From: a virus
Taxonomy: Duplodnaviria > Heunggongvirae > Uroviricota > Caudoviricetes
Length of the DNA stretch: 9,304 nucleotides
IMG/VR virus record: IMGVR_UViG_2671180603_000009
Coordinates: 1-9,304 of that record
Strand: one strand, 5' to 3'
This document shows positions 1,719 to 7,331 of the stretch, in pieces (the first letter of the stretch is position 1; each line of letters starts with the position of its first letter). The notes under the pieces are model-generated. The model made no database searches. It was not told where the DNA came from and worked only from the letters and a program-made list of their open reading frames with translations. The position numbers and the translations under genes are program-made.

Positions 1719-2276
1719 TCAACAATGAATTTTGAGTAATTGCTCTACAGTCATATTTTTAATTGCGCCCCGGTTAACAAGAGTCCATCCCTGTTCTTCC
1801 AGATAAAACCGGAAAGTCTCCATGGTACAGACCCGTGCGCCATCAGGAACGGTTTCGGTGAATCTGATGTTGCCGCGTTCGTCGAAGTGAACAACCAGGG
1901 TGCGGCCATCGCCTGGAATTATTTTGTCAGTGGGTGGGGTGTTATTCTGGCGCAGTTCGGCCTCCATGCGATCGAACTCAGCAATGTAGGCTTCTTTAAA
2001 TGCAGCGGCTTTTTTGCCAGTGAATCCCATCACCAGGAAAACGAAGCCGTTTTTGGTGATTTGGTACATCGGGCGTTTTTCGCCTTTGGCGTCAGTGTAG
2101 GTGACGTCCTCAAAATTGAGGGCGTTAAATTCAGGTGAGCATTCAGTATTTGCGATGGCACGTAACACATTGTCGTGACGCTTGCCAAAGAACTCTGCGA
2201 TCGCAATAGACGTAGTGACAGCGCGACCATTTTCGATGGTTACGTCAGGGTGAGAAAGGGCAGGGATAGTAGCCAT
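1719..2276 (-). CDS. rha: Rha-family phage regulatory protein (185 aa)
   Basis: Start ATG 2276-2274 preceded by GAGGA at 7 nt. Translation contains the Rha-family signature as I recall it (...IAEFFGKRHDNVLRAI...FVFLVMGFTGKKAAAFKEAYIAEFDRMEAEL). ORF track extends to 2573 but that upstream extension is not accepted as coding. Confidence 0.8.
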   Translation of the reverse strand: MATIPALSHPDVTIENGRAVTTSIAIAEFFGKRHDNVLRAIANTECSPEFNALNFEDVTYTDAKGEKRPMYQITKNGFVFLVMGFTGKKAAAFKEAYIAEFDRMEAELRQNNTPPTDKIIPGDGRTLVVHFDERGNIRFTETVPDGARVCTMETFRFYLEEQGWTLVNRGAIKNMTVEQLLKIHC

Positions 2277-2316
2277 GATGGCATCCTCGAGTGATAAGTT
2301 AATTAACTCACCACCG

Positions 2317-2729
2317 AGGTTTTCCACGACCATAAGGGTGGTGTGACGTACAGGGGTGGAAATACCGGTCACTCGAGAACCCGGCCAGTCTTGCGACTGC
2401 CCTGCACATCCCACCATAATTTGAATGGAGCTGTGCATTACGCATAAAAAAACCGCTTCAGCGCGGCTATGCGCTCGAGTAACGTTCGGGTTTCCACGCC
2501 CGGCACCCGTTTTATAAGGTGCAGGTGCACTATAATTCCACCCGTTCTGGTTTTCAATAGCTACATTCAACATTTTCTCTTTCCTTTCATCACCGAAGTG
2601 AACTTTGTTGATGCGGTGCCTGGTGCCTCCAGGTGACGTTAACCAGTTAACAATTAACGCCGGATACAGGGAAACCCATAACCACCCGATACGGGGGAAC
2701 TAATCGCTTTTTAACTGTGCCGCGTGCGC
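2317..2729. repeat. copy 1 of a ~413-nt tandemly duplicated non-coding element immediately upstream of rha
   Basis: Aligns base for base with 2731-3143 (about 32 differences, ~92% identity); hairpin-rich; see findings. Confidence 0.9.
2446..2469 (-). terminator. terminator-like hairpin plus U7 within element copy 1
   Basis: Plus strand aaaaaaa (2446-2452) followed by ACCGC-ttcag-(c)GCGG; on the minus strand this is a GC hairpin followed by seven U. Stem is short (4-5 bp). Confidence 0.35.
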
Positions 2730-2730
2730 N

Positions 2731-3143
2731 AGGTTTTCCACGACCATAAGGGTGGTGAGACGTACAGGGGTGGAAATACCGGTCATCACGGAACCCGGCC
2801 AGTCTTGCGACTGCCCCGCACGCCCCACCATAATTTGAATGTGGCTGTGCATTACGCATAAAAAAACCGCCTGAGCGCGGTTATGCGCCGTGAATGACTT
2901 CGGGGTAGCAATCCCGGCACCCGTTTTATGAGGTGCAGGTGCACTATAATTCCACCCGTTCTGGTTTTCAATAGCTACATTCAACATTTTCTCTCACCTT
3001 TCATCACCGAAGTGAATTTTGTTGATGCGGTGCCTGGTGCCTCCAGGTGACGTTAACCAGTTAACAATTAACGCCGGATACAGGGAAACCCATAACCACC
3101 CGATACGGGGGAACTAATCGCTTTTTAACTGTGCCGCGTGCGC
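2731..3143. repeat. copy 2 of the ~413-nt tandemly duplicated element
   Basis: See 2317-2729; a single n at 2730 sits exactly at the junction of the two copies. Confidence 0.9.
2860..2883 (-). terminator. terminator-like hairpin plus U7 within element copy 2
   Basis: Plus strand aaaaaaa (2860-2866) then ACCGC-ctgag-(c)GCGGT; minus strand reads as a hairpin followed by U7. Confidence 0.35.
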
Positions 3144-3177
3144 TGAGCCGCATTCACCGCATCACAAAATTCACTTT

Positions 3178-3218
3178 AAAAAGGGCGGACATCAGCCAGC
3201 AATGAAACTGATGCCGCC
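3178..3218 (-). terminator. candidate Rho-independent terminator on the minus strand
   Basis: GGCGGACATCAG (3184-3195) pairs with CTGATGCCGCC (3208-3218), 11 bp with one bulge and a 12-nt loop; on the minus strand the hairpin is followed by CCCUUUUUAAA (plus a-run 3178-3182). Confidence 0.4.
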
Positions 3219-3418
3219 AAAGGTACCAATCAACATGGAGTGTTGTGGCGTGGTTGTCACTTAAGCGTATGGTCAACCTGACAACCCGGTGTCCTCAACG
3301 GGGAAGGAATAACTCCGCCATACTTACCGCCGCGTCATTTCGCGTTGTGTGCCTGCTTTTAACCACGTCAGGCGAGGTGGTATCCTTCTTATCCCGAATA
3401 ACCAAGAAGGAAATCTAT

Positions 3419-4393: not shown

Positions 4394-4684
4394 TTAACTG
4401 TTTTTGCCTGGATACTGTCTTCGAGAATGCACAATATTTACTACTTCTATGCTTGATGCTGTTACTCGGTAAAGGATGATGTAGTTAGGATGAGTTACAA
4501 TTTCACGAAGACCAAGAACTCGCTCGCTTGGAGGATACAGGTAAGGATGCTCTGTGAGCGGCAAAACGGATGTTTCAATTCGAATTTTCATTCTGCGTGC
4601 TGCCGCGGGATTTTCTTTAGCTATGTAGGCTACGATCTGGCGCAAATCATCACGAGCAGATGGTAGCCATAAAACGGGTAACAT
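4394..4684 (-). CDS. parE: ParE/RelE-superfamily toxin (96 aa)
   Basis: Translation MLPVLWLPSARDDLRQIVAYI...HPYLYPP...LREIVTHPNYIILYRV...VVNIVHSRRQYP matches my recollection of ParE-type toxins; start overlaps the stop of the upstream antitoxin gene (TAATG). Confidence 0.8.
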   Translation of the reverse strand: MLPVLWLPSARDDLRQIVAYIAKENPAAARRMKIRIETSVLPLTEHPYLYPPSERVLGLREIVTHPNYIILYRVTASSIEVVNIVHSRRQYPGKNS

Positions 4685-4878
4685 TATTCACCTCTGTGAG
4701 TTGCAGCAGCAATTTGGGCAATAATTTGTTCCATTTCCGCCATTACCTCATCATGCGGAATCGCCGGGCGGGGATCCGCGAGGCTTGCTGCTACTTTGGC
4801 CCGCAGCCATTCGTTGTAACTATTTTCTTGCTCAACTGTCTCAAATTCTGAAACCATTGGGGAAAGGACTGTACTCAT
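4684..4878 (-). CDS. small antitoxin (64 aa), likely PaaA/ParD-like partner of the ParE toxin
   Basis: Small acidic protein directly upstream of and translationally coupled to the toxin gene; AGGAG-like RBS about 12 nt upstream of ATG 4878. Resemblance to the PaaA2 antitoxin of E. coli O157 is from memory and unverified. Confidence 0.65.
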   Translation of the reverse strand: MSTVLSPMVSEFETVEQENSYNEWLRAKVAASLADPRPAIPHDEVMAEMEQIIAQIAAATHRGE

Positions 4879-4897: not shown

Positions 4898-5398
4898 TTA
4901 GGCGCGACGGCCTTTTTGTGCAGCTAACCACCGCGCAACCGTACGATCCATTGATTCTTTTTTATCTTTCATCTCCTGAAGCATGTGTTCTTGATCTTCT
5001 TTCGGAAAAGCTCTGAACGTATGGATTAAATCTCGTTCCATCGGCTCTACGGCAAACGGTAGTTCATCCTCTGTTTGTTCTGTGTCTGCTGGTAATGCGA
5101 CTATGTTATCTTGCTGTGGTTCTCGACAATACATCCTTGCAATTTGCAGCAAATCTACCATGTCTGGCCTGATTGACTCAGGGGGAACTTTCAGTAAGCC
5201 AGCAAACTTTAGAACAGCCTCAAGGTTTAGTGGGGTTTGACCATTTAGGTAGTGACTTACCGCCCCTTGTGTTGAAAACCCCATAATTTCCGCCGCACGT
5301 TCCTGAGTCAATCCCAACTGAGATTTCTTTGCCATCCAGATTTCTTTCAGTCTTCTGGCGGCGTTGAGGTCGGTGTCTGACAATGATTTTCTTTTCAT
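4898..5398 (-). CDS. HTH (XRE-family) transcriptional repressor, RacR/PaaR-like, 166 aa
   Basis: ORF track 4898-5428 (GTG start); ATG 5398 (MKRKSLSDT...) preferred. HTH-like segment LGLTQERAAEIMGFSTQGAVSHYLNGQ; acidic C-terminus with no recognisable S24 peptidase (LexA-like) motif; divergent from the Cro-like gene and 19 nt upstream of the antitoxin gene. Confidence 0.75.
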   Translation of the reverse strand: MKRKSLSDTDLNAARRLKEIWMAKKSQLGLTQERAAEIMGFSTQGAVSHYLNGQTPLNLEAVLKFAGLLKVPPESIRPDMVDLLQIARMYCREPQQDNIVALPADTEQTEDELPFAVEPMERDLIHTFRAFPKEDQEHMLQEMKDKKESMDRTVARWLAAQKGRRA

Positions 5399-5405
5399 AC
5401 ATCCA

Positions 5406-5475
5406 ATTCTAATAAGATTGCTAATCACTTTGAAATAGCATCACTATTTACTTTTAAAAATAACAGTGCTATTAA
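5406..5475. promoter_or_regulatory. divergent promoter/operator region (OR-like)
   Basis: Inverted repeats AATAG-catca-CTATT (5434-5448) and AATAA-cagtg-CTATT (5459-5473), centres 25 bp apart, plus weaker AATAA-gattg-CTAAT (5411-5425). Plus-strand TTTACT (5447-5452), 17 bp, TATTAA (5470-5475) upstream of the Cro-like gene; minus-strand TTTCAA/18 bp/TAGAAT (plus 5406-5411) just upstream of the repressor ATG. Confidence 0.5.
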
Positions 5476-6195: not shown

Positions 6196-6266
6196 CTGAC
6201 AATAGCCATATCGAATCGCTCCCGGCAACTCGTGAGTAAAAAGATTCGGTATCAGAAGAGGTGAGT

Positions 6267-7331
6267 ATGGCTAACGCCTGGCTCAGATTATGGCATGACA
6301 TGCCAAATGACCCTAAGTGGCGAACAATTGCCAGGGTGTCAGGGCAGCCAATTGCAACAGTGATGGCAGTGTATATCCACCTCCTGGTGAGCGCGTCACG
6401 AAATGTCACGCGAGGTCACATTGATGTCACGACAGAAGATTTGGCAAGTGCGCTCGACGTGACAGAAGAGGTAATTGATTCAATTTTGCAGACGATGCAG
6501 GGGCGGGTACTTGATGGTGATTTAATCACTGGATGGGAAAAACGCCAGGTGCTTAAAGAGGACAACGGCAATATTTCGCAAACCGCAAAATCTCCTGCAG
6601 AGCGCAAGAGGGCGCAGCGAGAGAGGGAAAGAAAGCGGGAACAAAATGGCGATTGTCACGGCGCGTCACGAAATGTCACGCACATGTCACGACGAGTCAC
6701 GACAGATACAGATAAAGATACAGATAAAGAAGATCAAAACACTATGGTCCATGGCGTAAAAAACGCCACGAACCAGGCAGGGGATGTTCAGACCGTCAAT
6801 CCTGGTCAGCCAGCAGGCTCGACACCGGAAGCCGATTCAGCGTATGCGCTGAAAGCCGATTCGGGCGCTGTGCAGCAGGTGATGACCGCAAGGCCGGAGC
6901 AATCACTCCAACTGCAGCAGCCTGAAGCCGATTCCGCCATTCAGCGGGAAGCCGATCGGGTAGCCCCGGAAAACACCGGGCAGCCTGTGGGACGAGTGGA
7001 TTATCCGGATGTGTTCGAACAGGTCTGGCGGGAATACCCGTTGCGTGCCGGGGCAAACCCGAAGAAATCCGCATTCAGTGCCTGGAAGGCCAGATTGCGC
7101 GAGGGGGTGCCACCAGAGACCATGCTGGATGGTGTGAGGCGTTACGCGAGATACCTGGCGGCGACCGGGAAAGCGGGAACGGAATTTGTTCAGCGAGCGA
7201 CGACGTTTTTTGGGCCGGACCGGAATTTTGAAAACCCCTGGTTGCTCCCGGTAAGCGGCACGAACAACCAGCGTTGTGTGAATCATATTTCTGAACCGGA
7301 TACCGAAATTCCGCCGGGATTCAGGGGGTGA
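6267..7331 (+). CDS. phage replication initiator / replisome organizer (O-like, YdaU-type), 354 aa
   Basis: ATG 6267 preceded by AGAGGTGA; N-terminus MANAWLRLWHDMPNDPKWRTIA... is typical of prophage replication proteins as I recall them; iteron-like repeats lie inside the gene; followed 6 nt later by a DnaC-like gene. Confidence 0.8.
   Translation: MANAWLRLWHDMPNDPKWRTIARVSGQPIATVMAVYIHLLVSASRNVTRGHIDVTTEDLASALDVTEEVIDSILQTMQGRVLDGDLITGWEKRQVLKEDNGNISQTAKSPAERKRAQRERERKREQNGDCHGASRNVTHMSRRVTTDTDKDTDKEDQNTMVHGVKNATNQAGDVQTVNPGQPAGSTPEADSAYALKADSGAVQQVMTARPEQSLQLQQPEADSAIQREADRVAPENTGQPVGRVDYPDVFEQVWREYPLRAGANPKKSAFSAWKARLREGVPPETMLDGVRRYARYLAATGKAGTEFVQRATTFFGPDRNFENPWLLPVSGTNNQRCVNHISEPDTEIPPGFRG
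6388..6430. repeat. iteron cluster 1 (four GTCAC(G/A) repeats at ~10-bp spacing)
   Basis: GTCACG at 6392, 6402, 6423 and GTCACA at 6412; the 21-mer gcgcgtcacgaaatgtcacgc (6388-6408) is repeated exactly at 6661-6681. Confidence 0.6.
6654..6728. repeat. iteron cluster 2 (five GTCACG repeats) plus AT-rich 12-bp tandem repeat; candidate replication origin
   Basis: GTCACG at 6655, 6665, 6675, 6686, 6696 (spacing 10/10/11/10), then gatacagataaa x2 (6705-6728). Arrangement resembles phage lambda, whose origin lies inside gene O. Confidence 0.55.

Follow-up and report, generated by a model that had tools for sequence, protein, structure and literature searches.

What is the element of about 413 nt that stands twice, end to end, upstream of rha in the sequence of a virus assigned to the Caudoviricetes? 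The window, the whole stretch of DNA analysed here, comprises 9,304 nt, and a sequence-only reading of it had proposed that the doubled element is a tandem duplication encoding one large structured RNA of a family that it did not recognise. Our analysis strongly favours a model in which each 413-nt unit is an IsrK/C4 switch located before a prophage rha gene, the two units being specificity variants from two prophages that were scaffolded end to end. The RNA is an already known one, belonging to the phage switch class of P1 C4, P4 CI and Salmonella IsrK, and it lies in a misassembled scaffold; the RNA ends and the misassembly we infer from the sequence.

Two known RNA families in each unit

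Tandem Repeats Finder describes 2317-3143 as a repeat with a period of 414, 2.0 copies and 93% matches. Direct comparison of 2317-2729 with 2731-3143, 413 nt each, gives 33 differences, in line with the roughly 32 counted before; these are concentrated in paired elements, with the pairing retained, and the sole base separating the two copies, 2730, is an N, which the sequence-only reading had missed. An Rfam scan identifies two curated families in both copies, isrK (RF01394, model positions 1-77 of 77, above the gathering threshold of 50) and the C4 antisense RNA (RF01695, model positions 1-87 of 87, above the gathering threshold of 45), while c4-a1b1 (RF03163) gives weak matches overlapping the 5' half of each isrK. 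The isrK and C4 matches lie on the minus strand, as does rha, which bears out the strand assigned by the sequence-only reading. That reading had itself named an Rfam match to a known family as evidence against an unrecognised RNA, and two such families are present. What it took for one large structured RNA is really a promoter, a terminated IsrK, a C4 antisense RNA (processed in relatives) and target sites, which in copy 1 and the genes that follow are arranged as listed here in the order of the RNA strand.

2529-2557, minus strand: predicted PisrK promoter, sigma-70 type, TTGAAA-17 nt-TATAGT, 10/12 consensus matches
2446-2522, minus strand: IsrK, RF01394, 61.2 bits
2497-2491, minus strand: site a1, GUGGAAA, in the loop of IsrK hairpin 2
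2483-2474, minus strand: site b1, GUUACUCGAG, in the IsrK linker
2468-2451 plus U7, minus strand: IsrK terminator, hairpin and U7
2334-2421, minus strand: C4, RF01695, 70.9 bits
2277-2417, minus strand: equivalent of Gifsy-1 orf45, its AUG inside the C4 5' stem (AUUAUGGUGGG)
2379-2368, minus strand: element b', UUCUCGAGUGAC, loop of C4 hairpin 2
2362-2356, minus strand: element a', UUUCCAC, single-stranded C4 element
2277-2327, minus strand: target region with a2 and b2, ahead of rha
2327-2321, minus strand: site a2, GUGGAAA, just 3' of C4
2294-2284, minus strand: site b2, UCACUCGAGGA, including the rha Shine-Dalgarno GAGGA
1719-2276, minus strand: rha, the gene under predicted control, with a Phage_pRha domain
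1708-1520, minus strand: dicB, downstream of rha
1577-1332, minus strand: DUF1482 gene, downstream of rha

The corresponding elements of copy 2 are as follows.

2943-2971, minus strand: predicted PisrK promoter, consensus matches
2860-2936, minus strand: IsrK, RF01394, 64.8 bits
2911-2905, minus strand: site a1, UUGCUAC, in IsrK
2898-2888, minus strand: site b1, GUCAUUCACGG, in IsrK
2882-2865 plus U7, minus strand: IsrK terminator, hairpin and U7
2748-2835, minus strand: C4, RF01695, 80.5 bits
2793-2782, minus strand: element b', UUCCGUGAUGAC, C4 loop
2776-2770, minus strand: element a', UUUCCAC, in C4

In copy 1, IsrK consists of two 5' hairpins followed by the b1 linker and a Rho-independent terminator, and by consensus matches this sRNA of about 77 nt has its own predicted promoter and terminator, the promoter ending 6 nt ahead of the isrK 5' end in each copy. 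C4 of copy 1 has a 17-bp outer stem that encloses a GCAA hairpin, a second hairpin bearing the 12-nt b' loop, and the single-stranded a'. In P1 and P4, C4 is processed by RNase P from a longer transcript; Hfq binding and trans-activation of the long transcript are characteristic of the isrK family. The elements a' and b' are complementary to a2 and b2 at the downstream ribosome-binding site, where the Shine-Dalgarno GAGGA lies 7 nt before the rha AUG at 2276; the Phage_pRha domain occupies residues 120-204 of the maximal 284-aa frame.

Every motif quoted from the letters alone lies within one base of its stated position, and these structural observations find a place in this arrangement. The CGGG/CCCG stem with a variable loop (2487-2502 and 2901-2916) is IsrK hairpin 2, the hairpin followed by U7 on the minus strand is the IsrK terminator in both copies, and the GCAA-loop hairpin at 2386-2399 is the first inner C4 hairpin. 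The long-range helix between GGTCACTCGAG (2367-2377) and CTCGAGTAAC (2474-2483) in copy 1 and between GGTCATCACGG (2781-2791) and CCGTGAATGAC (2888-2898) in copy 2, which we find within one base of where it was placed, is the C4 loop b' pairing with b1 in IsrK. The minimum-energy fold predicted for the 258-nt leader (-111.5 kcal/mol, z = -7.4) includes a long-range helix of a1b1 with a'b'.

The identity of both families in Rfam, together with anchors in Gifsy-1, P4 and P1/P7, makes the element an ordinary, already known member of the phage RNA-switch group (P1, P4, Gifsy-1). The switch is homologous to seqA-CI-seqC of P4, a1b1-c4-a2b2 of P1 immI and isrK-orf45-anrP of Gifsy-1. A close parallel is the isrK-orf45-anrP region of Gifsy-1 (isrK 34316-34240, C4 34214-34131, anrP start 34076), which has the same order of promoter, terminated IsrK, C4-type RNA (STnc1160/orf45) and regulator gene, its isrK promoter (TTGACA-17-TATATT) occupying the same position as PisrK in the window. 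Hershko-Shalev et al. 2016 (PMC4825925) report that STnc1160, a processed species from downstream of IsrK, is stable. In the same phage, the pairs G28-C162 and G31-C159 of "helix b-I" were proven by compensatory mutation (PMC4825925), and our mapping places them in a1 and a'; in the window, the middle part of IsrK likewise pairs with the downstream C4/orf45 segment, as judged by covariation and the minimum-energy fold. The two loci differ in the regulated gene, which belongs to the Rha family in the window and is the ORF6N-type AnrP in Gifsy-1, and in their surroundings, the window module lying in an early-left dicF-dicB region and the Gifsy-1 module beside a Q-like antiterminator; isrJ follows the Gifsy-1 module but not the module in the window. 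They also differ in the orf45 frame, which ends in an overlapping AUGA in Gifsy-1, whereas the frame in the window (47 codons) shows no stop overlapping the regulator start and enters rha in frame without a stop codon, so that the translational-coupling step of Gifsy-1 is not literally transferable.

In P4 (isrK 8692-8615, C4 8507-8420 by Rfam), the order is as in the window, and the homology of seqA, the CI RNA (seqB) and seqC reaches the opening codons of the ORF that follows (MATTLTPSHPE versus MATIPALSHPD), although the P4 genes downstream are other than those in the window. IsrK is described as a structural homologue of P4 seqA, the CI RNA as pairing with seqA and seqC, and the P4 output as premature transcription termination of the replication operon (PMC4825925). 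In the account of P1 and P7 cited in PMC7313666, C4 regulates ant by binding complementary upstream regions, and in immI it controls icd/ant through a1b1 and a2b2 sites (Citron and Schuster 1990, cited in PMC7313666). The two Rfam families named for immI are RF01695 and RF03163. What the window shares with immI is the fold of C4, a pair of recognition elements that both recur upstream and downstream, a downstream site pair lying over the ribosome-binding site of the gene that precedes an antirepressor-type function, and specificities that differ between related phages via matched changes; unlike in P1/P7, the a1b1 leader is a separately terminated sRNA (IsrK), and the target is rha directly, with no icd, rather than icd/ant. 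In APSE phages of Hamiltonella, c4 and isrK lie upstream of a BRO-N gene (PMC7313666), the same Rfam family pair, whose a'/b' match sequence located before the neighbouring regulator gene, in another host and before another gene family than in the window.

Matched pairing elements and a predicted switch

Searches based on Rha provided 18 loci from species-representative genomes, 80 from IMG/VR and two complete E. coli loci. Rfam places a single isrK and then a single C4 directly before the gene start in E. coli, Shigella, Citrobacter, Marinomonas, Vibrio and Arsenophonus; on one short contig of Pseudomonas, only C4 is detected. Among the 80 IMG/VR loci, 76 keep the isrK-C4-gene order and four have a different leader or no C4 part; P4 and Gifsy-1 keep it too. 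Searches of phage collections returned partial matches only, at about 85% identity, in Stx phages.

In an alignment of 41 distinct modules from enterobacteria, Vibrio, Marinomonas and Arsenophonus, b' varies in concert with b1 in IsrK and with b2, which abuts or overlaps the Shine-Dalgarno, and a' likewise changes together with both a1, in the hairpin 2 loop of IsrK, and a2, which follows C4 closely on its 3' side. For a1-a' and b1-b' together, 89.4% of cells are paired, compared with 62.6% in shuffles, and 162 cells are changed on both sides; the covariation score is 0.631 versus 0.152, was reached by none of 500 shuffles, and is at most 0.137 in slid controls. Within the two RNAs, the internal helices reach 95.4% pairing and include 18 pairs in which both sides have changed; in the C4 outer stem and its two hairpins, 98-100% of cells are paired and 15 pairs are of this kind. 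The compensatory changes noticed between the two copies are therefore real, the covariation across 41 modules supporting the pairing. A column-wise count of b'-b2 and a'-a2 on the same alignment is weak (64.5% paired, with a slide of -2 scoring better), and the register of b2 relative to the Shine-Dalgarno moves by 2 nt between classes. Because a shifting register weakens column counts, we used register-free duplex energies, which for b'-b2 are -17.5 kcal/mol in cognate and -8.4 kcal/mol in non-cognate combinations; the corresponding values are -13.7 and -7.1 for b'-b1, -15.8 and -8.4 for a'-a1, and -12.5 and -6.6 for a'-a2. In 36 of 40 modules, b2 is the best or tied target of b'.

The 41 modules comprise 17 b' classes and 11 a' classes, and these re-assort: CCGUGAUGA, for example, occurs together with a1 GUGGAAA, UUGCUAC or UUAGCAC. 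Nevertheless, the a and b classes are nearly always coherent over the three copies of each element, though copies of a and b are interspersed in the RNA. The two variants in the window have b' = CUCGAGUGA and b' = CCGUGAUGA, with cross duplexes of -8.6 to -11.6 kcal/mol versus cognate values of -16 to -20 kcal/mol, and are predicted from these energies not to cross-react. Tentatively, as a reading that we consider possible and yet short of probable, we suggest that a and b form a two-part address code by which co-resident prophages gate their own antirepressor-type gene without cross-talk, IsrK serving as a built-in decoy for C4. With several copies per genome that differ in specificity, the module is a good natural data set for antisense-target co-evolution.

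By analogy with P1, P4 and Gifsy-1, the switch may operate as follows. The elements a' and b' of C4 would each be able to pair with the upstream sites a1 and b1 in IsrK or with a2 and b2 downstream. Most transcripts would stop at the IsrK terminator, while those that read through would carry C4, which would fold back on a1/b1 or pair with a2/b2. Pairing of C4 would shut the rha ribosome-binding site and the orf45-like frame, so that the downstream genes, including dicB, would remain silent, probably through polarity. Free IsrK, with a1/b1 as decoy sites, would compete for a'/b' and open the message for the synthesis of Rha, a putative antirepressor-like regulator; Rha-type and Ant-type proteins would then act on prophage regulation. 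Because the a and b sequences differ among prophages, each module would address its own target only. The outputs described for the three studied relatives differ from one another, comprising a translation block, transcription termination and activation by IsrK.

Two probable scaffold joints and the apparent duplication

The single N between the copies is one of two interruptions in this part of the window, and a second pseudo-duplication accompanies the other: 451-1197 and 1262-2008 are 91% identical over the DUF1482 gene, dicB and the 3' part of rha, and are divided by a run of 14 N.

2730, no strand: single N, scaffold joint between the piece 1212-2729 and the piece from 2731 onwards
1198-1211, no strand: run of 14 N, scaffold joint; the homology of 451-1197 to 1262-2008 stops exactly at 1197

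Both N sites thus coincide exactly with ends of homology, at 1197 and at 2729 and 2731. The piece between them, 1212-2729, is 99.7% identical to an IMG/VR locus (L021) over exactly that span; this locus has one unit, and its sequence differs past both ends of the piece. Identity to the left piece is 98.3-98.5% in two other loci (L031 and L033), which match the copy-2 unit at 96.4-96.7% but rha 2009-2316 at only 83%. This pattern indicates a single prophage as the origin of the left and right pieces, the scaffold lacking that prophage's rha 5' half, and the 83% at 2009-2316 marks the middle piece as an interloper contig rather than a collapsed repeat. The apparent duplication is most likely a scaffolding artefact joining contigs of two related prophages, in which 1212-2729 would be a contig of the second prophage dropped into the gap between the contig that ends at 1197 and the one that starts at 2731. 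An identical core at 2009-2316 common to two prophages was also considered and is ruled out by the 83% identity of L031 and L033 there.

That the sequence-only reading saw a tandem duplication is understandable, for the sequence as given reads so, and a lone N might in principle mark an ambiguously called base. A real duplication, with two IsrK/C4 modules of different specificity in series before one rha, is nevertheless highly improbable. The N stands precisely on the boundary between the units, a pattern seen again at 1198-1211; 1212-2729 matches L021 as a block with differing flanks; and L031 and L033 show how the partner locus is arranged in nature, with one copy. In 5,426 complete E. coli genomes, a 300-nt query spanning the junction found no one-piece match, all 17 of its full-coverage places being two permuted pieces over a single unit of 406-417 nt. 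Neither did blastn detect a second unit copy in about 87 related enterobacterial loci carrying the unit, where most matches cover the entire isrK-C4 part and a few reach only its isrK end; two further loci (L029 and L042) have a different leader. As a biological feature, then, the duplication falls to the N at 2730 and to the single copy in these loci and genomes.

Copy 2 itself also argues against two working modules in series: its C4 is followed in the window by neither a b2 site nor a target gene, and its a1 does not match its a'; with an a'-a1 duplex of -8.1 kcal/mol, it is alone among the 41 modules in having a non-cognate-like value. Roughly the first 60 nt of copy 2 belong to the other class, as would be expected of a chimeric contig end, although the a1/a' mismatch could instead reflect a natural recombinant. 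Scaffolding from two prophages predicts a source locus for copy 2 with a rha 5' half like that of L031 and a b2 of UCAUCGCGG. The module is present in about 84% of complete E. coli genomes, the median number of places per genome being 2 and the maximum 10, and with several copies per genome short-read assemblies often break there. One other IMG contig (L035/L036) has a likewise doubled rha, around a 20-nt data gap.

The MLNV frame and the Pfam "Ash" domain

As the sequence-only reading had noted, a frame starting with MLNV is open and in copy 1 continues in frame into rha. The region could accordingly be taken to encode protein, namely an N-terminal "Ash" domain of a 284-aa Rha that starts at MLNV. 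PF10554 (Phage_ASH, "Ash") matches residues 14-109 of the 284-aa frame above its gathering threshold (60.4 bits, E = 2.7e-16), Rha proteins of 284 aa are annotated by PGAP (NCBI), 37 of 40 enterobacterial sequences having both the MLNV and the rha starts keep the frame open and in phase with rha, length differences within it are multiples of 3, and Gifsy-1 orf45 is translated from the AUG inside C4 (PMC4825925).

We regard this protein reading as very unlikely, because the frame does not evolve as coding sequence by codon position and is interrupted by stops in distant relatives. In the leader, the MLNV/rha frame has 36 of 83, 40 of 84 and 35 of 84 variable sites at the three codon positions (15/53, 16/54 and 17/53 without the a and b elements), and thus no third-position excess, in contrast to rha itself, whose first 330 nt in these genomes have 38, 33 and 83 variable sites out of 110 per codon position. 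The earlier preference for RNA over protein is upheld by this comparison. Moreover, the frames of Marinomonas, Vibrio and Arsenophonus contain stop codons although the RNAs are conserved there, the promoter and terminator lie inside the ORF, and the MLNV ATG (2573-2571) is upstream of the PisrK -35. A PDB sequence search with the 99-aa leader translation matched no solved structure. The PF10554 match in P4 falls exactly over the CI RNA, on the old and now obsolete "cI gene product" ORF.

The "Ash" domain in Pfam therefore looks like a conceptual translation of the isrK-C4 locus. By analogy with Gifsy-1, its last 47 codons (2417-2277) alone would correspond to the translated orf45, and translation of the leader may be limited to these. 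In Gifsy-1, the first AUG of orf45 (A107 when numbered from the start of IsrK) is the one that lies within the conserved AUUAUGGUGGG of the C4 5' end, and by this comparison the real orf45 AUG is the one inside C4. An alternative start at the AUG directly after the IsrK U-run was rejected: from there, 15 of 44 distinct sequences, those of the most common class among them, read MR and then a stop.

Reading the locus as an RNA switch has consequences for annotation. PGAP-type annotation lengthens Rha by about 100 residues across isrK-C4, and Pfam holds the translation as "Ash"; studies that use Ash as a protein domain or as a marker of P4 epsilon (PMC8951638, PMC8628076) track the RNA locus. The P4 helper-derepression protein epsilon belongs to PF25738, a family other than PF10554. 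If the address-code reading is true, the Pfam "Ash" that serves as a protein marker in some studies is a translated RNA gene. The reinterpretation of "Ash", together with a clean natural example of antisense-target specificity classes, is a by-product of value.

A single novel structured RNA of about 413 nt, to which the strong predicted folding (z = -7.4) and the real covariation might point, has a probability close to negligible, since two curated Rfam families account for all structured parts and the unit has an internal promoter and terminator. Upstream of isrK on the RNA strand, the part of the unit at 2729-2523 (207 nt) has a weak STnc100-like match only.

Specificity of the antisense elements

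Among the 41 distinct isrK-C4 modules of our alignment, the specificity classes of the two elements, a and b, re-assort from one module to another. Along the RNA, the sites of IsrK (a1, b1), the C4 elements (a', b') and the downstream target sites (a2, b2) follow the order a1 b1 ... b' a' a2 ... b2, so that each element is present in three copies and the copies of the two elements are interleaved. This arrangement implies that coherent swaps of a class need several exchanges or, alternatively, co-evolution after recombination. In copy 2 of the isrK-C4 unit (2731-2795, 2905-2911), a1 reads UUGCUAC and is mismatched to a'/a2, which read UUUCCAC/GUGGAAA, whereas a'/a2 read GUAGCAA/UUGCUAC in coherent relatives of the type of L031, a locus with the natural single-copy arrangement. 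The mismatch in copy 2 reflects either the end of a chimeric contig or a recombinant that arose naturally by a single crossover and has yet to be compensated.

Two IMG/VR loci (L029 and L042) carry the same rha gene (at 1501) behind a leader of ~250 nt that is unrelated in sequence. This leader contains ACAGUUAAG twice: one copy precedes a terminator and the other lies at the Shine-Dalgarno sequence. The leader may represent an analogous antisense switch of a different family.

Probable scaffold joints and doubled rha genes

A second pseudo-tandem duplication, spanning the DUF1482 gene, dicB and the 3' part of rha, is formed by 451-1197 and 1262-2008, which are 91% identical. The two parts are separated by a run of 14 Ns (1198-1211), and the homology ends exactly at the last base before this run. 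This pseudo-duplication is the same scaffolding artefact as that at position 2730, where contigs of two related prophages were most likely joined at an N site. Similarly, a single contig in another draft genome (IMGVR_UViG_2663762996_000010, 17523-22115) has two rha copies 1.9 kb apart that flank a 20-nt data gap; each copy shares 98% identity with the Rha protein in the window over residues 1-159 of the latter, and this doubling is probably a scaffold artefact of the same type.

The Pfam family PF10554

PF10554 ('Phage_ASH') has been employed as a marker of epsilon (PMC8628076) and described as a domain of unknown function within Rha proteins (PMC8951638). In the window, its match (2247-2534, minus strand) is to the isrK-C4 RNA locus in conceptual translation, and the stretch matched is included in the 284-aa 'Rha family' proteins predicted by PGAP in two of the compared loci (L001, L002). 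In the P4 record, PF10554 maps not onto epsilon, which belongs to PF25738, but onto the 'cI protein' ORF, an obsolete annotation that overlaps the CI RNA (L101 8330-8521, minus strand).

Operon setting and neighboring features

Features upstream of isrK
3183-3231, minus strand: DicF-like sRNA (Rfam 38.8 bits, below the threshold of 48; E = 9.5e-6)
3215-3188, minus strand: terminator of the DicF-like sRNA
3018-3171, minus strand: weak STnc100 match (Rfam 31.6 bits; threshold 47)

Together with threshold-level DicF matches at the equivalent position in the relatives L002 and L007, the DicF-like sRNA places the isrK-C4-rha module between dicF and dicB, in a dicBF-type operon. The weak STnc100 match falls within the ~200 nt of the unit that precede the isrK promoter.

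Other features of the window
4394-4878, minus strand: ParE-toxin/PaaA2-antitoxin gene pair
6654-6730, plus strand: short tandem repeats, TGTCACGACA x5 and AGATACAGATAA x2.2

The toxin-antitoxin pair sits between a repressor-like HTH gene (4898-5428) and a DUF1391 gene. The repeats fall within a 356-aa gene (6261-7331) that by position corresponds to the lambdoid replication-initiator (O) gene, and they are positioned like origin iterons.
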